A DNA stretch of 43,445 nt, from assembly GCA_001412365.1 (NCBI GenBank), contig LKUE01000391.1, forward strand, positions 1 through 43,445, written 5' to 3'. This DNA is from Desulfuromonas sp. SDB. Lineage in GTDB: Bacteria; SDB-A. Shown one piece after another: positions 30,101 through 38,079 of this stretch (positions are counted from its first letter, which is position 1; each line of letters opens with the position of its first letter). The notes below the pieces were generated by a model that had not been told where the DNA came from, did no database searches, and worked only from the letters and a program-made list of their open reading frames with translations. The translations under genes and the position numbers were made by a program.

Positions 30101-32447
30101 TATAGTTGTATTATTTTTGATGCTATGCAGTAAAAACGATCAGTTAGTGGTTTCTGCAGACACCTCTTTCTCATTTGAATTGCAGAGGGGAAGAGGTAAG
30201 TTCAAAATATTTGAGGATCAATGGTCTGATTTGGAATTATCTGTAATTCCTCAAGTTCCTTTTTCTGTATTTGATGAGGATCATAATCTGGTAGCTGCTA
30301 CCGATGACGGTTCAGTGCGTCTGAATACGTTCAGAGATTACTGGTTAACTGTTTCTTTCTCCGGTTTAGACGATTTAAAACTGAGAATTGACTTAAACCG
30401 GACCAATGATTACCGCAGGTTGACTTCAACCCCTGTGCAGGGTGAACTGGGTCCATCTCAACCTGCTGAGGTAATTGAATACGTAATCCCCCAAGATGGA
30501 AGATACCGGTTTGAATTAGATTCCCCTGACCGGGGCGGGGATATAGATTTAAACATCTATGTGGATAACTACAACTTAGCGGGATCAGGTGTTTCCCAAA
30601 CCAATCATGAACAGGTAAGTGTTGATGGGTTTTGTCAGGATACAATCAGAGCACTGATTTTTTTAAATGATCTGCAATCCAGGGTGAGGTGGGAATTAAA
30701 TATTGATCAGAACGATGAATTAACCGGTATATCAATTGGCCAGGCAGATATTTACCTCATGAATTATGAGCAGCCCCGGGATATCTATCTTCTTGATAAC
30801 ACCACATCTTATCCTGTTTTAATATATTTAAATTCTTCAGAGGATGTGGATCTCGATTTAATAGTTGAATATCAAGGGGAGAAATACAGTTCAACCTCCT
30901 ACAGTTCTATGGAGACCGTACTCATTCCCCCCCGGACCAGGGATATTAAAATTGTAGTGGAAGGATATCAACTAAATGAAACTAATCCCCGCTATACTTT
31001 AGAAGCCAGGGAAATTAAAAATTTCTACTCCTTTTCCACCGGTCATATTCAAACTCAGGTAGATCCGGAAAGCAGAGAAATAATTGGAATTGTCAACAGT
31101 TCACCGGGATTTAAGTATTTTGAAGTCAATTCCATTGAGAAACGGGATGTGGATATGATTATATTCAATCACTATGGAGTTTCTGATTTAAGCTTCAGCT
31201 CTCTGAATCCAAGGGAAGTTTCAGTACAGTGGATGGATTATGGAGATACTTTGTTCATATTGCCTATGCTCTACGACAGGTCTTCACCGGTGGACATCAT
31301 ATTCAGGGAAATAGACCCGGATACCCTACCTCGATTGACTGAAAATATGAATTTAGAAGATTTTGTAAGACCTCCTTATCAGGGGGTAAAAGTTTATCTT
31401 TTAGAATTCGAAAACAGGGGAACTGGAGTAATTACAGTGAGGGGAGAAAGTCACCGGGAGAGAGATGTGGATTTAATTGTAGCGGGTAGGGATTTCCACC
31501 GCCGATCGGAGGGGGAAGAAAATCCTACCGACCGGGCTTCAGATGAAACCATCCTGTTTTACGTCCATCCTGAGCAGGACTATCTGGCTGAGGTATACGC
31601 CTATGGACGGGGTGATCGCTGCCGATATCAGATATCCTCCCTGTTGATAGAAGATCAACAACTGCAATATACCTCTCAGCCCTCTATTTGGGCGCTGATT
31701 GTGGGTATTAGCGGATATCCCGGGGAGAGTGCACTGAATAGAGCCAGTCAGGATGCATTGGAGTTTTATCAGACTGTAGTTGAATCTGAAAATGTTGATC
31801 CTTCCCAGGTGGTTTTTCTAGCAGATGAGCAAGCTACCCGGGATAACATTATCGAAAACCTCAACCGTATTTCCACTTTGGCTAAACCGGGAGACCGCAT
31901 TATCTTTTTCTTTAGCGGACATGGCTGTCAGGAAAGATATCAGCAGGGAGAGTTGGAAGAAGATGGATTTGATGAAGGCATTTGCGGATATCCTCAACCG
32001 GGAAATGAAGACATTTTTGACGACGAGTTAAATGACCTGCTTCCGGATAATATTGAAGCCTGGATTTTTCTGGATGCATGTCATTCCGGAGGATTTGTTA
32101 AAGATCTTATGAATAAAAATAACCGGTTGATTATTACCGCCAGTGAGGAAGACCGGGAAGTCGGGGAAAGAGTGCTGACCCCCATATTGATAAGAGCAAT
32201 AAGAGGAAGGGCGGACAGCAACGATGATGGTTACATATCTGCCCGGGAGTTAATGGATTATGTGGGATATCATTGCCTGCATACTTGTCCGGAGTGTCTT
32301 TATGAATTTTCAGGTTCTGCTCCCCGCACTTGTCCTAATTGCGGGACTGAATTAACTGGCAGCAATAGACCGATGAATCCTGAACTGGATACTAATTTAG
32401 ATCCGCACCGGAAATTGTTTCGAATATATTCAGGAGGTAAGAATTGA
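30090..32447 (+). CDS. Probable exported or lipoprotein caspase-family (peptidase C14) protease with PPC-like repeats and a C-terminal Zn ribbon
   Basis: Short hydrophobic N-terminus ending LMLC, four D[IV]D[LM]-containing beta repeats, WALIVGI, FFFSGHG, FLDACHSGG and CPEC...CPNC. Confidence 0.85.
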   Translation: MIINIVVLFLMLCSKNDQLVVSADTSFSFELQRGRGKFKIFEDQWSDLELSVIPQVPFSVFDEDHNLVAATDDGSVRLNTFRDYWLTVSFSGLDDLKLRIDLNRTNDYRRLTSTPVQGELGPSQPAEVIEYVIPQDGRYRFELDSPDRGGDIDLNIYVDNYNLAGSGVSQTNHEQVSVDGFCQDTIRALIFLNDLQSRVRWELNIDQNDELTGISIGQADIYLMNYEQPRDIYLLDNTTSYPVLIYLNSSEDVDLDLIVEYQGEKYSSTSYSSMETVLIPPRTRDIKIVVEGYQLNETNPRYTLEAREIKNFYSFSTGHIQTQVDPESREIIGIVNSSPGFKYFEVNSIEKRDVDMIIFNHYGVSDLSFSSLNPREVSVQWMDYGDTLFILPMLYDRSSPVDIIFREIDPDTLPRLTENMNLEDFVRPPYQGVKVYLLEFENRGTGVITVRGESHRERDVDLIVAGRDFHRRSEGEENPTDRASDETILFYVHPEQDYLAEVYAYGRGDRCRYQISSLLIEDQQLQYTSQPSIWALIVGISGYPGESALNRASQDALEFYQTVVESENVDPSQVVFLADEQATRDNIIENLNRISTLAKPGDRIIFFFSGHGCQERYQQGELEEDGFDEGICGYPQPGNEDIFDDELNDLLPDNIEAWIFLDACHSGGFVKDLMNKNNRLIITASEEDREVGERVLTPILIRAIRGRADSNDDGYISARELMDYVGYHCLHTCPECLYEFSGSAPRTCPNCGTELTGSNRPMNPELDTNLDPHRKLFRIYSGGKN

Positions 32448-34234
32448 CAACGGAAGAGTTAAGGCAGGCTTATATTGAATTTTTTAAACTTAACCAGCAT
32501 AAACAAATTAGCGGTTTTTCTTTAATTCCTGAAAATGACCCCACCGTATTGTTTACCACTGCAGGGATGCATCCCCTGGTTCCTTATCTGATGGGAGCTG
32601 AACATCCCTGCGGGAAAAGACTGTGTAATTGGCAGAAATGTGTCCGCACCGGGGATATTGATGAAGTTGGTGATTCCCAGCATTTAACCTTTTTTGAGAT
32701 GTTGGGTAACTGGTCTTTGGGGGATTATTTTAAAGATCAAGCCATTGAGATGAGTTACCAGTTTTTGACTGATTCCTCTTGGCTGGGAATAAATCCTGAT
32801 AAATTATTTATCACTTTGTTCCAAGGAGACCAGGTTGCTCCCCGGGATGAACAATCAGCAGAACTCTGGATTAAACAGGGCATTGAGCAAGGACATATCT
32901 TCTTTTTGGGAAAGAAGGACAACTGGTGGGGCCCGGCAGGAAAAACCGGACCTTGCGGACCGGATACCGAAATGTTTTACGACACCGGATTACCTTTCTG
33001 CAGCGCTAACTGTCAGCCCGGATGTCCCTGCGGCAAGTATGTGGAAATATGGAACGATGTGTTCATGGAATACGATAAGCAATCAAACGGTTCTTATGCA
33101 GAGTTATCCCAGAAGAATGTAGATACGGGGATGGGATTGGAGAGGACTTCCGCCACTCTCAACGGTTATTCATCGGTTTATCAAATTGATAAATTCCAAC
33201 CCATTATTGAGGTTATTGAAAAGCTGTCCAAAAGAAAATTTATGGAAAATAAAGAGGATACGGTTTCGATGAGAGTAATTGCTGATCACATCAGGGCAGC
33301 GGTATTTATTATGGGTGATCCTCTTGGCGTTCCTCCCTCTAATCTGGATCAGGGATACATTGTGAGAAGACTTATCCGCAGGGCGATGAGACATGCTATG
33401 CAGCTGGAGATTAATGATCAGCTGGGAGACAGTTTAACCGACCTAATCATTGAATTAAATCCGGTTTATCCTGAATTAAGTGAACGAAGGAATTTCATTT
33501 TGGAATCATTCAGGGAAGAAGAGCAGAGATTTAAAAAGACCCTTAACCGGGGTTTAACTGAATTAAAAAAAATTCTGCCCCAGGTATTACAATCAAAACA
33601 GAAAGTGATTTCCGGCAGAGTTGCGTTTAAGCTGTACGATACTTACGGATTCCCTCTGGAGATGACTGAAGAACTGGCTAAAGAGCATGGAGTTGAAGTT
33701 GACCAGGAAGGATTTACCCGGGCATTTGAAAAACACCAGGAAAAATCCCGCAGCGGAAGTGAGTTGAGATTTAAAGGGGGACTTGCCGATGCCAGTGAAC
33801 AGACCCGTAAACTTCACACTGCTACTCATTTACTGCACCAGGCATTGAGGATGGTGTTAGGGGAACATGTGCAGCAGAAAGGTTCCAATATCACCCCGGA
33901 AAGGCTGAGATTTGATTTCAGCCATCCTCAGCCCATGACCAAACAGGAAATTGAACAAGTTGAAAAAATTGTGAATGAGGTAATCCAGAAGGATTTGCCT
34001 ATCAGCTGTGATCTGATGACCTTGGATGAAGCGGAGAATAAAGGCGCTATCGCTTTATTTGTGGACAAGTATTCCCAACAGGTAAAAGTATATTCAGTGG
34101 GGGATTTTTCCAAGGAGGTATGCGGAGGTCCCCATGTGGACCGTACCGGTGAATTGGGGAGATTTTCCATAATCAAGGAGCAATCCTCTTCGGCAGGAGT
34201 CCGCAGAATTAAGGCGATTTTATCATCTGAATAA
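32444..34234 (+). CDS. alaS: Alanine--tRNA ligase, short form lacking the C-Ala domain
   Basis: LFTTAGM, FFEMLGNWS.GDYFK, DTGMGLER, DH.R, HTATHLLH and CGGPH; ends at GVRRIKA. Confidence 0.96.
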   Translation: MTTEELRQAYIEFFKLNQHKQISGFSLIPENDPTVLFTTAGMHPLVPYLMGAEHPCGKRLCNWQKCVRTGDIDEVGDSQHLTFFEMLGNWSLGDYFKDQAIEMSYQFLTDSSWLGINPDKLFITLFQGDQVAPRDEQSAELWIKQGIEQGHIFFLGKKDNWWGPAGKTGPCGPDTEMFYDTGLPFCSANCQPGCPCGKYVEIWNDVFMEYDKQSNGSYAELSQKNVDTGMGLERTSATLNGYSSVYQIDKFQPIIEVIEKLSKRKFMENKEDTVSMRVIADHIRAAVFIMGDPLGVPPSNLDQGYIVRRLIRRAMRHAMQLEINDQLGDSLTDLIIELNPVYPELSERRNFILESFREEEQRFKKTLNRGLTELKKILPQVLQSKQKVISGRVAFKLYDTYGFPLEMTEELAKEHGVEVDQEGFTRAFEKHQEKSRSGSELRFKGGLADASEQTRKLHTATHLLHQALRMVLGEHVQQKGSNITPERLRFDFSHPQPMTKQEIEQVEKIVNEVIQKDLPISCDLMTLDEAENKGAIALFVDKYSQQVKVYSVGDFSKEVCGGPHVDRTGELGRFSIIKEQSSSAGVRRIKAILSSE

Positions 34235-34270: not shown

Positions 34271-34304
34271 ATACCTGGAACTGGTTTTATCCAGTTCCAG
34301 GTAT
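34271..34304. terminator. Perfect 14-bp hairpin between convergent alaS and trpB2; probable bidirectional terminator
   Basis: ATACCTGGAACTGG-TTTTAT-CCAGTTCCAGGTAT. U-tracts are weak on both sides. Confidence 0.75.
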
Positions 34305-34312
34305 ATGATCAG

Positions 34313-35698
34313 TTAGCCCGTATTAATTAAACATTCCGGCTTGGGAAAATTACTCAGAGCTTCCAGCGATTTATTCAGCTTTTCAGGGGAAAGCCGATGA
34401 TCGGTCAGTTTTCCGTTTAAGTAATCCTCATAAGCATTTAAATCCAGCATTCCATGCCCACTCAAATTAAATAAGATTACCCGGGGTTTGCCCAGTTTCT
34501 TGGCTTTCTCCGCTTGTTCAATTACTGCAGCCAGGGCGTGGGAAGTTTCCGGGGCAACCACTATACCCTCAGCGAAGGCAAATTGAACTGCCGCTTGATA
34601 GCATTGAAGCTGGGGAAAAGCCTGGGGAGAAAGCAGACCGGCTTGTACTGCTTGAGAAACCAGGGGAGCCATCCCGTGATATCTTAGCCCCCCTGCATGA
34701 ATGGGAGCAGGGATGAACTGATGACCCAGACTGTGCATGGCTAGCAGGGGAGTCATCCCCGCTGAATCTCCAAAATCATAACAGTAAGGTCCTCTGGTCA
34801 AGGTAGGACAGGAAGTAGGTTCTACCGGAATAATTTCAATCTGCTCTCCGTGAATTTTATCCAGCAGATAAGGAAAACTTAAACCGGCAAAATTACTTCC
34901 TCCTCCCACACAGCCAATTACCGTATCCACTTTAGCTTCACCTAATTTAGCCAGCTGTTTTTTAGCTTCTAAACCGATTACCGATTGATGCATCATCACC
35001 ATGTTTAGTACGCTGCCCAGAGAATATTTGGTTTCGCCGGATTTATCCTCCATTGCCTTTTCCAGAGCCTCACTGATGGCAATGCCCAAACTGCCCGGAC
35101 TTTCCGGATGCTGGTTTCTGATTGTTCTTCCAAATTCGGTGGTATCGCTGGGACTAGCCAGGCAATGGGCTCCCCATATTTTCATCAACGTTTTTCTCAA
35201 AGGTTTTTGATGGTAGCTTATGTTTACCATGTAAACCTGGCATTTCAGCTTGAATTTTGCACAGGCAAACGCCAGAGCGCTTCCCCATTGACCTGCTCCG
35301 GTCTCGGTGGTGAGACATTTTACCTGTTCTTTGTGGTTGTAATATGCCTGAGCTACTGCAGTGTTGGGTTTATGGCTGCCGGGGGGAGATACACTTTCAT
35401 CTTTAAAATATATACGGGCGGGAGTGTCCAGGATTTTCTCCAGATTTACTGCTCTTTTCAGGGGAGTAGGTCTCCACAGGGAGAGTACTTCAAGAATGTC
35501 CTGGGGGATATCAATCCATCTTTTTGTGGAAATTTCTTGTTCAATTAATGATTGAGGAAAAATTAACTGTAAATTTTCCGGGTTCAATGGAATCCCATTA
35601 GCAGTGAGGGGAGGATTTTTAGGTCCGGGTAAATCCGGAGCTATATTCAGCCACTGCCGGGGGATTTCATGGGGGCTAAGACTTATTTCAGTATTCAT
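34313..35698 (-). CDS. trpB2: TrpB2-type tryptophan synthase beta chain (PLP enzyme)
   Basis: WRPTPL.RA..LE, GSHKPNTA (PLP Lys), TETGAGQWG, PGSLGIAISEA, GGGSNFAG, HAGGLRYHG and LSGHG. Confidence 0.95.
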   Translation of the reverse strand: MNTEISLSPHEIPRQWLNIAPDLPGPKNPPLTANGIPLNPENLQLIFPQSLIEQEISTKRWIDIPQDILEVLSLWRPTPLKRAVNLEKILDTPARIYFKDESVSPPGSHKPNTAVAQAYYNHKEQVKCLTTETGAGQWGSALAFACAKFKLKCQVYMVNISYHQKPLRKTLMKIWGAHCLASPSDTTEFGRTIRNQHPESPGSLGIAISEALEKAMEDKSGETKYSLGSVLNMVMMHQSVIGLEAKKQLAKLGEAKVDTVIGCVGGGSNFAGLSFPYLLDKIHGEQIEIIPVEPTSCPTLTRGPYCYDFGDSAGMTPLLAMHSLGHQFIPAPIHAGGLRYHGMAPLVSQAVQAGLLSPQAFPQLQCYQAAVQFAFAEGIVVAPETSHALAAVIEQAEKAKKLGKPRVILFNLSGHGMLDLNAYEDYLNGKLTDHRLSPEKLNKSLEALSNFPKPECLINTG

Positions 35699-35755
35699 AA
35701 ATACTCCTTGTAATTGGTTGAATGGGTATAGAGGAAAAATAAAGGTAAAATAGTA

Positions 35756-35774
35756 TGGGCGGTTAAACCGCCCA
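35756..35774 (-). terminator. Attenuator-like GC-rich hairpin overlapping the second Trp codon and the stop of the leader ORF
   Basis: Minus strand TGGGCGGT-TTA-ACCGCCCA, followed by TACTATTTTACCTTTATTTTT. Confidence 0.7.
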
Positions 35775-35912
35775 CCAATGAATGCAGGTAATGGTTAGAC
35801 TGTCGGTTTTGGCTAGTTTAACCAATAGATAGTGTTGCCCTGACCCCAATTGTTCTAATTTAAAACAATTGAAGTTTAGACAGAAGTTTTGGAACAGGCA
35901 GTTACCTATCAT
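35763..35912 (-). CDS. Putative Trp leader peptide (49 aa, ends HWWAV); an alternative TTG start at 35825 gives 20 aa
   Basis: ATG lies 1 nt after the trpR TGA. Translation MIGNCLFQNFCLNFNCFKLEQLGSGQHYLLVKLAKTDSLTITCIHWWAV*. Tandem TGG TGG directly upstream of trpB2. Confidence 0.7.
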   Translation of the reverse strand: MIGNCLFQNFCLNFNCFKLEQLGSGQHYLLVKLAKTDSLTITCIHWWAV

Positions 35913-35913
35913 C

Positions 35914-36189
35914 TCAGTCGTTCTTATTGTACATGGATAGAAGTTTCTTAATTGCAGAATTATTCTTTTTCAATTCTCTTGATCCACGGGTTATTTTGCA
36001 CAAGCTTATATGCAGCTGCCGGGCAATGGACCTTTGACTGATACCTCGGTCTAGCATTTTAAGCAACTCCCATCTCTTATCCAGTGTGTTTACTTCAGCA
36101 GGAGTGAGGATTTGATGAAAAAAATCTTCAATTAAATCTGGATCATTGATCCTGCTGAGCAAGTTTGATATTTCAGTTAAATTATCCAT
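35914..36189 (-). CDS. trpR: Trp repressor (TrpR/YerC family); start ATG 36189
   Basis: LTPAE....RW..L.L..G.SQR.IA..L.IS..ITRGS.ELK; upstream of trpB2. Confidence 0.9.
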   Translation of the reverse strand: MDNLTEISNLLSRINDPDLIEDFFHQILTPAEVNTLDKRWELLKMLDRGISQRSIARQLHISLCKITRGSRELKKNNSAIKKLLSMYNKND

Positions 36190-36195
36190 TAAATC

Positions 36196-36215
36196 TGTTT
36201 CTATAGACAGAAACA
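36196..36215. promoter_or_regulatory. Candidate TrpR operator palindrome
   Basis: TGTTTCT-ATAGAC-AGAAACA between the promoter and the trpR start codon. Confidence 0.55.
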
Positions 36216-36232
36216 CCTTGTTAAATTTAAAA

Positions 36233-36261
36233 AGATTAGCCTTTTTAAAAGGCAATGTCAA
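36233..36261 (-). promoter_or_regulatory. Sigma70 promoter of the trpR-trpB2 unit
   Basis: TTGACA (36261-36256), 17-nt spacer, TAATCT (36238-36233). Confidence 0.7.
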
Positions 36262-36318
36262 CTTAATAATTTATTGAAGATTCAAAATTAAAAAATATTT
36301 ATATGGGCTAAATGGTTT

Positions 36319-38079
36319 TTAAGCGTCTTCTATGAGATATTGGGAAGTACCGGTAACTCTGAAAACTTCCTTATAGGAAGTTTGTCCCAGCAGCATTTTT
36401 TTCACCGCTACCTCCCGCAGAGAGAGCATCCCTTCTTTACGGGCATTTTGCCTTAAGTTAATACTGTCTGCTCCGGAAACGATCAATTGACGGGTGCGGG
36501 GAGTTATATTCATTGTTTCAAATATTCCGGTCCTCTCTAAAAATCCGGTTTGACGGCAGTGAAGACATCCTTTTCCCGATTTTATTTGGGCTTGGGAAAT
36601 TAAATCTTCGGAGAGGTTGAGTGCTTTAATTACATCCGGTGGTAATTTTGAATCTTGGGTGCAGTGAGTGCAGACTTTTCTCACCAGTCTTTGGGCGATG
36701 ATGCCGATTAAAGTTGAGGCGATCAGATAACGGGGGATTCCCAGATTGGACAAGCGGGTAATCGCGGAAGGAGCGTCAATGGTGTGCAAAGTGGAAAAGA
36801 CCAAATGACCGGTGAGAGCAGCTTGTATGGCGTAATTAGCAGTTTCTTCATCCCTGATCTCTCCCACCATAATAATGTCGGGATCCTGGCGGAGAACATT
36901 TCTTAAAGCATTGGCAAAGCTAACCCCTGACTTCGGATCAACGGTTATTTGATTGAAATCTTCATATACCAATTCTACTGGATCTTCAATGGTGATAATG
37001 TTCACTTCCGGTTTAGTCAGTTCACGGAGAAGGGAGTACAAAGTTGTGGTTTTCCCGCTCCCGGTAGGTCCGGTAATAAGTATAATACCCTCGTTATGTC
37101 CAATAAAATCTTTAACCAGGGCAAGTTCTTTGGCGAAAAACCCTAATTTATTTATTTCCAGCAGAAGAACTTCCGGATCGAAAATCCTCATAACCACTTT
37201 TTCTCCGAATACAGTGGGCATGGTGGAAATCCTCACTTCTAGTTCAATGCTTTTATACTCCCTCTTGATCCTGCCGTCCTGGGGGATTCTTTTTTGAGCG
37301 ATATCCAGACGGGACAGGATTTTTATCCGGGATACTATGGCTGAATGAACCAGAGTGGGCATGACATGAACATCATGCAGAACTCCGTCAATTCTCATTC
37401 TAACCAGGGACAAATTTCGCTTTGGTTCGATATGAATATCCGAAGCCCTTTGTTCAAATGCATATCCAAACAGATTATCTACTGCCTGCACAATGGGCTT
37501 GGTATGGGGGGATAATTCCTGCTCAGCGCGGCTAAGGTATTCCCGGTCGAAAATATTCTTGGATTCCAGGGAACCGGCTCTCAACATGGTTTCAGCAGCT
37601 TTGAGAGAGGTGTGTAATCCAAAAAATCCCTGATTGATAATTTCAATGTCGCTGGGAGTGGCGATGACCGGTTTAACTTTTATCTGCAGCTGATGCTCAA
37701 TTTCTTCCAGTATCTTCAATTTTTCCGGGTTGCACAAAGCTACGGTTATCTGATCGCCCTCTCTGGATAAAGGAACAATGTTATGATGCTTTGAATAATT
37801 GGCAGGAAGGGAGGCAGTAACAATTTCAATGTCCAGGGAAAGGGGATCAATATGGATGAAATTAAATCCCAGTACTTCCGCCATATTCCGGTAAACCTCT
37901 TCTTCGGACAGGGTGTTGGTGGAAATTATAGCTTGAAGCAGAGACTGACTGGACAGTTTTGCGTGACGTTTTACTTTTTCCAGTTTTTCAACTTCCACAA
38001 TATTTTGTTTTAGCAGGTGATCTATGATTTCCTGTTCAATTTCAGCTTGGGTTTTATTAGCAAAATCCAGGTTCATCAT
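36319..38079 (-). CDS. PilB/GspE family type IV pilus or type II secretion assembly ATPase
   Basis: ASDIHIEP, PQDGR, GPTGSGKTT, TIEDPVE, LRQDPD.IMVGEIRD, TGHLVFSTLH and tetracysteine CTHC/CLHC. Confidence 0.95.
   Translation of the reverse strand: MMNLDFANKTQAEIEQEIIDHLLKQNIVEVEKLEKVKRHAKLSSQSLLQAIISTNTLSEEEVYRNMAEVLGFNFIHIDPLSLDIEIVTASLPANYSKHHNIVPLSREGDQITVALCNPEKLKILEEIEHQLQIKVKPVIATPSDIEIINQGFFGLHTSLKAAETMLRAGSLESKNIFDREYLSRAEQELSPHTKPIVQAVDNLFGYAFEQRASDIHIEPKRNLSLVRMRIDGVLHDVHVMPTLVHSAIVSRIKILSRLDIAQKRIPQDGRIKREYKSIELEVRISTMPTVFGEKVVMRIFDPEVLLLEINKLGFFAKELALVKDFIGHNEGIILITGPTGSGKTTTLYSLLRELTKPEVNIITIEDPVELVYEDFNQITVDPKSGVSFANALRNVLRQDPDIIMVGEIRDEETANYAIQAALTGHLVFSTLHTIDAPSAITRLSNLGIPRYLIASTLIGIIAQRLVRKVCTHCTQDSKLPPDVIKALNLSEDLISQAQIKSGKGCLHCRQTGFLERTGIFETMNITPRTRQLIVSGADSINLRQNARKEGMLSLREVAVKKMLLGQTSYKEVFRVTGTSQYLIEDA

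Follow-up and report, generated by a model that had tools for sequence, protein, structure and literature searches.

A Trp-Trp hairpin upstream of lone trpB2 genes: a candidate ribosome-read tryptophan sensor

The window considered here is the whole 43,445-nucleotide (nt) stretch of contig LKUE01000391.1 from Desulfuromonas sp. SDB (positions 1 to 43,445). Its minus strand carries the tryptophan repressor gene trpR followed by trpB2, which encodes a TrpB-like protein, and the short interval between the two genes holds an open reading frame (ORF) ending in two adjacent Trp codons (WW) within a GC-rich hairpin. The codons belong to the 5' arm and the stop codon lies in the loop; this anatomy is conserved in frame in two phyla and is exclusively associated with a lone trpB2. 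It can be hypothesized, with about an even chance of being right, that the interval is a tryptophan sensor read by the ribosome, located between trpR and the lone salvage gene trpB2. Considering the hairpin geometry, the conserved frame and the lone trpB2 together, a sensor appears to be the best explanation. An initial annotation of the window had described a 49-codon Trp-Trp ORF opening 1 nt past the trpR stop, its overlap with a hairpin and a G-free tract before trpB2, and all of these features are present on the minus strand at the positions given below.

The WW hairpin in the window

The features of the trpR-trpB2 interval and its two flanking genes are as follows (aa, amino acids).

35914..36189, minus strand: trpR, 91 aa plus a TGA stop (Pfam PF01371 Trp_repressor, E 2.6e-18)
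35763..35912, minus strand: 49-codon leader ORF, MIGNC...TCIHWWAV-stop, with its ATG 1 nt past the trpR stop (TGA-g-ATG)
35772..35777, minus strand: tandem Trp codons TGG TGG, the first at 35777-35775 and the second at 35774-35772
35755..35775, minus strand: GC hairpin GTGGGCGGT-TTA-ACCGCCCAT, 9 pairs of which 6 are GC, loop of 3, tail ACTATTTTAC
35710..35754, minus strand: G-free, pyrimidine-rich spacer of 45 nt, from base composition
35704..35709, minus strand: Shine-Dalgarno sequence AAGGAG of trpB2, read from the sequence
34313..35698, minus strand: trpB2, 461 aa, ATG at 35698 (NCBIfam NF009057, TrpB-like PRK12391, E 1.3e-202)

In addition to its Pfam match, the trpR product scores 46.1 bits against the NCBIfam TrpR model, which is under the cut-off of 67.25. 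The leader ORF ends as Cys-Ile-His-Trp-Trp-Ala-Val-TAA (stop at 35765-35763), and its frame is open for 64 codons 5' of WW (P ~0.007 in 20,000 composition-preserving shuffles). No Shine-Dalgarno sequence can be seen by eye 5' of its ATG, so that ribosomes would reach WW in the window only via the ATG abutting the trpR stop; together with the TGA-g-ATG junction, this suggests entry by termination-reinitiation. Neither a Pfam nor an NCBIfam match was obtained for the 49-codon ORF, and no homologue of the 49-aa frame was found among proteins of 26-86 aa.

Regarding the hairpin, its 5' arm is made up of the last G of the first Trp codon, the second Trp codon, the Ala codon and the GT of the Val codon, and the TAA stop occupies the loop and the first base of the 3' arm. 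RNA folding, proposed initially as a check, bears the hairpin out: both the minimum free energy and the centroid prediction for the 236-nt leader contain it (z of -3.36 relative to shuffles), and its energy is -15.0 kcal/mol (RNAfold). A terminator scan classes it as terminator-like. The 58 nt that separate it from trpB2 have the composition A17 C13 G3 T25, all three G being in AAGGAG. No antiterminator partner for the C-rich 3' arm can be found in the G-free spacer, where the folds show a single hairpin; the initial annotation was right in seeing no 2:3/3:4 alternative pairing. An Rfam search of 35000-36600 with E up to 10 returned no Trp_leader, the five hits being to unrelated families and far under their gathering scores. 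The suggestion that AUACU/CCUU pairs with the Shine-Dalgarno sequence was rejected, as only 4-5 base pairs (bp) would form in the window and nothing equivalent is present in the spacers of relatives.

Conservation across five loci

Five loci can be aligned, namely the window, two from a sister genus (L002 in genome G004 and L003 in genome G005) and two from spirochaetes of the Exilispira order (L117 in genome G061 and L140 in genome G085). The block TGGTGGGCGG, a stop-bearing loop and then CCGCCC are invariant in all five, each time upstream of a lone trpB2. By column, TGGTGGGCGG, the T of the stop and ACCGCCC do not vary; the flanks are unalignable and the mean column identity is 68%. The initial annotation had staked its reading on in-frame conservation of WW in relatives, and WW is invariant and in frame in 5/5 loci with the same GGGCGG/CCGCCC hairpin, the stop coming exactly two codons after the second Trp. 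Loops (TTTAA, CCTGA, TCTGA, TCTAA, and GTTAGA) and stops (TAA, TGA, TGA, TAA, and TAG) differ.

Hairpin energies range from -14.1 to -15.9 kcal/mol over the five loci, in surroundings of 20-41% GC. The Ala codon is GCG throughout, even where the 200 nt 5' of WW have 20-28% GC, as expected under selection for the stem. The three frames that are not trpR (49, 62, and 69 codons) are open at P 0.006-0.009 each in composition-preserving shuffles. An AAGGAG precedes trpB2 in every locus, at the end of spacers that are not conserved: the hairpin-to-trpB2 distance is 58 to 337 nt (58-64 nt in the window's lineage), and no second helix common to the five aligned loci was found. Taken together, these observations suggest that selection would act on a frame whose translation brings a ribosome to WW in the hairpin and lets it go in the loop.

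A perfect inverted repeat in DNA, conserved in sequence with no covariation, could also be the operator of a dimeric regulator, the reading frames being incidental. Such a role is very improbable. The spacing between GGGCGG and CCGCCC is 5 nt in four loci and 6 nt in L140 (3 vs. 4 unpaired bases by RNAfold), and a loop that varies in length and sequence while keeping its stop fits an RNA hairpin with a reading frame, not a DNA site of fixed spacing. Moreover, a search of the two spirochaete genomes gave no TrpR-family gene, it is another palindrome that is conserved at the trpR promoter (see below), and the long in-frame ORFs would be left unexplained.

The WW codons as the tail of trpR in a sister genus

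The window's lineage was sampled through six genomes of one family, the relatives carrying the source name "candidate division WOR-3 bacterium." Two of the five other family members, G004 and G005, have trpR, and the same two have trpB2. The window genome (3.1 Mb), G004 and G005 each have a single exact copy of the 21-nt motif, and the reversed control gives 0 matches. No separate leader can be found in L002 or L003: the trpR frame itself ends LWIWWAA-TGA or LWIWWAV-TGA, respectively. To reach WW, this frame extends ~12 codons beyond the TrpR domain, and its stop falls within the hairpin loop (TGG TGG GCG G.. T.A CCGCCC), 59-64 nt from the trpB2 start. A full-length upstream gene thus ends in the hairpin, directly in G004 and G005 and in the window only via the coupled 49-codon frame, the coupled leader being the apparent functional equivalent of the fused form. 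The proposal that trpR translation feeds the leader is strengthened by this arrangement, in which WW are the last codons of trpR.

Window and sister-genus TrpR align with 48% identity. Among the best 120 of 379 TrpR homologues with E <= 1e-8, the WIWWA[AV] ending is found in three, all of them from this genus-level cluster, and 116 of these 120 have no Trp in their last 10 residues. The linker 5' of LWIWWA differs among the three proteins and the tail does not. Judging from this survey, the WW tail is not a feature of the TrpR family.

The motif in a second phylum and its distribution

A motif scan with one genome per species gave at least 118 stretches. Of the 118 listed, 116 were treated as chance, having flanks of 47-64% GC or more or lacking a long in-frame ORF with a stop, and the remaining two lie upstream of trpB2 (tblastn): the G004 contig and L117. 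The latter is on a contig of an Exilispira sp. metagenome-assembled genome, where the hairpin holds the STLFWWAV-TAA end of a 69-codon frame that has an AAGGA box, 337 nt 5' of trpB2. The Exilispira order was then searched with the TrpB2 protein, not with the motif, in eight genomes. Two of the eight have trpB2 and both carry the motif; likewise, trpB2 is present in three of the six genomes of the window's phylum and all three carry it. The second Exilispira-order locus, L140, was in this way found independently of the motif. Its TrpB2 is 73% identical to that of Exilispira, and a 62-codon frame ends SFNWWAG-TAG in a hairpin with the GGGCGG/CCGCCC stem and a loop one base longer, 123 nt 5' of trpB2. 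At L140 1143-1179, TTGACA, 16 nt, TATTAG and 7 nt precede the leader ATG, with no Shine-Dalgarno sequence visible by eye; this leader may be translated from a leaderless transcript. In 401 sampled Spirochaetota genomes no further intact copy of the motif was found (the reversed control gave 2 matches), and one genome, G234, has the motif with a single stem-breaking mismatch.

TrpB2 is found at E <= 1e-120 in 153 of 401 sampled genomes. The best 30 TrpB2 loci were read; three belong to the window's family and the other 27 do not, <250 nt of upstream sequence being available for two of these 27. Other short WW frames occur in 3 of the 27 other-family loci (L147, L152, and L164), 111-156 nt upstream of trpB2. 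L147 and L152 are classical attenuators with a terminator and a U-tract, L152 showing three segments, GGCGGG/CCCGCC/GGCGGG. From these sequences, ribosome sensing of Trp before trpB2 appears common, and the design with WW in the hairpin appears distinct and rare. Its presence is out of step with TrpB2 similarity: the Exilispira proteins are 51-54% identical to that of the window and motif-less ones 62-64%.

Sensing might not be involved at all. The hairpin could be an ordinary intercistronic terminator or 3'-end stabilizer, WW being merely the coding content of its G-rich arm, inherited or transferred with it. The terminator-like class given by the scan, a stem that is invariant with no compensatory change, as for young, shared or transferred DNA, and the mismatch with TrpB2 similarity, which hints at transfer of a module, all fit this explanation. 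It is nevertheless unlikely, since the frame and the loop stop two codons past WW are kept in 5/5 loci despite diverged loops and flanks and the longer L140 loop, three long frames stay open in AT-rich DNA (P ~0.007 each), and the sister-genus trpR is lengthened by ~12 codons just to reach the motif through a variable linker. Furthermore, every copy of the motif lies 5' of trpB2, with none elsewhere in the carrier genomes.

Tryptophan physiology

In the window genome (G000, 98.7% complete), the Trp_syntA match has 23.6 bits, under the cut-off of 27, and neither IGPS nor Chorismate_bind is matched, the same searches being positive in 14/14 control genomes. Trp_syntA is not matched over its cut-off in any of the other four motif-bearing genomes. 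By these profile searches, trpB2 appears as the only tryptophan-pathway gene found in the window genome. Members of the TrpB2 family make tryptophan from scavenged indole, and this is most simply what the lone trpB2 would do. For a stand-alone salvage gene, control by tryptophan starvation, with more expression when Trp is short, makes sense.

Promoter palindrome, strain-variable stretch and neighboring features

Two further features of the operon frame the interval.

36197..36214, minus strand: palindrome GTTTCT-N6-AGAAAC, candidate TrpR operator, directly 5' of trpR
34271..34304, minus strand: terminator-like 14-bp hairpin 3' of trpB2, operon end, from the terminator scan

The palindrome precedes trpR in 4/4 trpR-trpB2 loci, namely the window, L002 (1090-1107), L003 (G005:C37:8252-8269) and a metagenomic locus, L010 (~218-235), which suggests that it could be the TrpR operator. 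It occurs once each in G004 and G005 and twice in G000, where the second copy (C354), inside a 556-aa ORF, was taken as chance. By eye, TTGACA, 17 nt and TAATCT can be found 5' of trpR (36233-36261, minus strand), a promoter that the promoter scan did not call; in L002, L003 and L010 a TTGACA box lies 17-18 nt from the left half of the palindrome. A small hairpin, GCCTTTTAAAAAGGC (36239-36253, minus strand), between the TTGACA box and the palindrome, is present in the window only.

In the window, the TrpR domain and WW are separated by ~130-150 nt that the sister genus does not have. A repeat or mobile element was considered and rejected, as the 140 nt at 35776-35915 have no second copy in the genome (the next match, E 0.2, is a 19-24 nt AT-rich hairpin). 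Contigs from two independent metagenomes match trpR with 8-10 differences in 369 nt and the WW-hairpin-trpB2 side with 0-8 differences in 181-203 nt, these flanks being 95-100% identical. Between them, 129-151 nt (35780/35802 to 35932) are replaced by sequence of equal length that is <80% alike. The replaced stretch, a strain-level hypervariable cassette, comprises the last ~6 trpR codons and the body of the leader frame. In one such variant strain (P0121), TrpR has the same end point and differs in its last residues only. The window's version of the leader is found in two other runs, with a sole in-frame change (35844) that is synonymous by codon reading. The body of the leader would therefore seem free to change, its length and both ends being kept.

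Inside the leader frame, a near-perfect AT-rich hairpin of ~15 bp, CAATTGTTTT...AACAATTG (35840-35870, minus strand), dominates the predicted leader fold together with a second hairpin of 7 bp; both are within the strain-variable stretch. In a low-depth contig (run X6, depth 2.7), both G at 35706-35707 of the trpB2 AAGGAG are read as A. The trpB2 frame is also open for 32 codons 5' of its ATG, up to the WW region (35698-35777, minus strand). A frameshift fusion of leader and trpB2 was rejected as not conserved: the upstream frame is open in the window (493 vs. 461 aa) and G005 (494 vs. 456 aa) and closed in G004 (462 vs. 457 aa) and L117 (444 vs. 425 aa), and an open frame is expected anyway in G-poor sequence. 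Convergent to the trpB2 operon, a gene of 596 aa resembling alanyl-tRNA synthetase (32444-34234, plus strand; Pfam tRNA-synt_2c and tRNA_SAD) can be found. The usual alanyl-tRNA synthetase is longer.

Proposed mechanism and its alternatives

What we infer from the anatomy of the element is that ribosomes reinitiate and stall, together with the direction and level of control. Transcription would start at the trpR promoter, which TrpR itself would repress via the palindrome. Ribosomes finishing trpR would restart at the ATG 1 nt past its stop and run 45 codons to UGG UGG. At low levels of charged tRNA-Trp, the first or second UGG would be held in the A site of a waiting ribosome that covers and unwinds the 5' arm for a long time, and the open hairpin would result in more trpB2 expression. 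When Trp is plentiful, the ribosome would pass in a fraction of a second and be released at the loop stop, after which the hairpin would re-form and downstream expression would be lowered. A ribosome unwinds messenger RNA to ~11 nt past the first base of its P site. With the first UGG in the A site, i.e., with His in the P site, 6 of the 9 pairs would be open, and one codon earlier the stem would be nearly intact. From this geometry, WW would sit exactly where a starved ribosome first destroys the hairpin.

As for the output, the closed hairpin would most likely act by termination or pausing of RNA polymerase before trpB2, a tentative proposal that takes somewhat more than half of the even chance given to the sensor as a whole. 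Judged by the usual rule, the hairpin would be a poor, doubtful intrinsic terminator.

Several observations weigh against a sensor of this kind. L002 and L140 lack a U-run, which in the window, L003 and L117 begins 3-6 nt beyond the stem. The hairpin would be covered or opened just as effectively by a ribosome on the loop stop as by a stalled one; by the time the ribosome arrives at WW, a polymerase closely coupled to it would have reached or passed the U-run; and, the spacer being G-free, there is no antiterminator to store the decision. The stem displays no covariation: 6 of the 9 pairs are invariant and in no pair have both sides changed, so that its support comes from energy and conservation. 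A peptide required to read Trp-Ala fixes four of the six bases of the 5' arm, which leaves two that were free to covary but have not done so. Only five sequences are available, from two or three independent lineages, and L117 was found via the motif itself. Regarding distribution, the motif is found in none of the 27 trpB2 loci from other families. In addition, a metagenome scan with a TrpR alignment gave one locus, L010, whose TrpR and TrpB2 are 57 and 65% identical to those of the window; this nearer trpR-trpB2 relative has neither leader nor WW, its trpR-trpB2 gap being 19 nt. The initial interpretation is supported in part, a sensor being likely and the terminator mechanism unproven: a stalled ribosome blocking a terminator is poorly served by a U-run that is displaced in three of the five loci and missing in two and by a loop-stop ribosome that opens the hairpin equally, and, of the covarying stems expected, the stem is present in 5/5 loci and the covariation is not.

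The same sensor could instead have a post-transcriptional output. Stabilization by a stalled ribosome is textbook knowledge from the erm genes. Here, the trpB2 message would come to begin with a protective ribosome or hairpin, either through the stalled ribosome or through a cut at the starved codons. Such an output, fairly unlikely overall, avoids the timing problem of the terminator model and agrees with the lack of a proper U-tract after the hairpin in 2/5 loci; the 58-337 nt between hairpin and trpB2 fit a 5'-end stabilizer and are not easily squared with a structure that involves the trpB2 ribosome-binding site. The trpR or leader product would remain unfinished, which in the sister genus would mean less completed TrpR and a feed-forward derepression. 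The Trp codons are indeed the last codons of the repressor in G004 and G005, which resembles Chlamydia YtgCR, where a repressor's own synthesis is controlled through Trp codons (PMC7755916, in part). Against it, no computed result speaks for cleavage or differential stability, and the repressor part would not be general, considering that no TrpR was found in the two spirochaete genomes. Stabilization by a stalled ribosome is moreover an idea carried over from erm.

Rho-dependent polarity is a further possibility, and quite an improbable one. After release at the loop stop, the naked spacer, G-poor and containing C, would load Rho, and the polymerase would be stopped before or inside trpB2; a stalled ribosome or the opened hairpin would interfere. 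The spacer of the window is G-free for 45 nt, C exceeds G in four of the five spacers (C/G of 13/3, 9/5, 13/6, and 16/10), G000 has a rho gene (Rho_RNA_bind, 78.7 bits), and mycobacterial Cys leaders were once suspected of Rho-type action (PMC1262725, in part). On the other hand, the 58-64 nt from hairpin to start in the window's lineage would be partly under the initiating ribosome, leaving little room for Rho, and L117 has no C excess (31/35). A ribosome stalled at WW would also leave the spacer equally naked, with no obvious Trp dependence.

Meaning and comparison with known systems

The Trp codons, the stop and the only hairpin form one 21-nt unit with no competitor, conserved base for base in two phyla. 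If Trp is indeed sensed, its mode of action lies outside the textbook model. It is possible, if tentative, that this portable "WW-Ala-x-stop in GC hairpin" module senses charged tRNA-Trp with no alternative structure and constitutes an undescribed mechanistic class of attenuator. The repressor-fused gene would then read both free tryptophan, through the protein, and charged tRNA-Trp, through the message, and Trp shortage would have two simultaneous effects, an unfinished repressor and an induced salvage enzyme. Found in two unrelated phyla and not tracking TrpB2 similarity, the module would be one that spreads or originates separately from the gene it controls. It would also offer a handle on the regulation of indole salvage in uncultured sediment bacteria that lack de novo tryptophan synthesis. 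No report of a WW-in-hairpin module before trpB2 was found in the literature searched, a scope to which subscription journals and supplementary files did not belong. We know of no earlier case of the last codons of a repressor serving as attenuator.

Leader-peptide attenuation is textbook-level and is defined by competing hairpins. As in E. coli trpL (Rfam RF00513), an adjacent UGG pair can be found in a leader frame before a tryptophan-synthesis gene, next to a GC-rich hairpin. Unlike in trpL, there are no 1:2, 2:3 and 3:4 alternatives, the Trp codons are in the 5' arm and the stop is in the loop of the hairpin, the U-tract is poor or absent, the frame has 49-69 codons or is the repressor gene itself, and Rfam gives no match. 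Both would be a second layer under TrpR repression (PMC7755916, in part).

The closest system in layout is the E. coli rph-pyrE intercistronic attenuator, whose form is that of the sister-genus trpR-WW-hairpin-trpB2 arrangement. In rph-pyrE, the 3' end of a full-length upstream gene serves as leader and the position of the stop beside the attenuator loop matters (PMC2784333, in part, citing Bonekamp et al., 1984). The signals differ, as pyrE senses UTP (uridine triphosphate) via polymerase speed, a close ribosome preventing termination, whereas here the two Trp codons would be the signal. The rph-pyrE logic would give the wrong sign here unless the stalled ribosome itself holds the hairpin open.

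The order trpR, leader region, trpB in a salvage-only organism is shared with Chlamydia trachomatis trpRBA. The initial annotation had pointed to this layout, which exists in print, although as an unvalidated annotation only: the trpR-trpB interval is annotated with a 59-aa TrpL whose Trp codons are not consecutive and for which poor attenuation is predicted (PMC7755916, in part). In Chlamydia YtgCR, a WWW motif makes the synthesis of another repressor Trp-dependent, with an effect in trans (PMC7755916, in part). Unlike in Chlamydia, WW are consecutive, act in cis if at all, and are fused to TrpR in the sister genus.

With regard to codons held in a duplex, the mycobacterial polycysteine leaderless short ORFs (sORFs) have 3'-end regulatory codons in a stable duplex that a stalled ribosome keeps open, with no terminator (bioRxiv 10.1101/834739, in part). 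In those sORFs, the pairing partner of the codon tract is the Shine-Dalgarno sequence of the following gene (10.1101/834739, in part), whereas here it is the adjacent CCGCCC; a purine-rich Shine-Dalgarno sequence cannot pair with the G-rich arm of the window. Like these leaderless sORFs, the L140 leader also looks leaderless by eye. Among these systems, the element described here is a variant of leader-peptide attenuation, and the repressor-fused form and the 21-nt module shared across phyla are its surprising parts.

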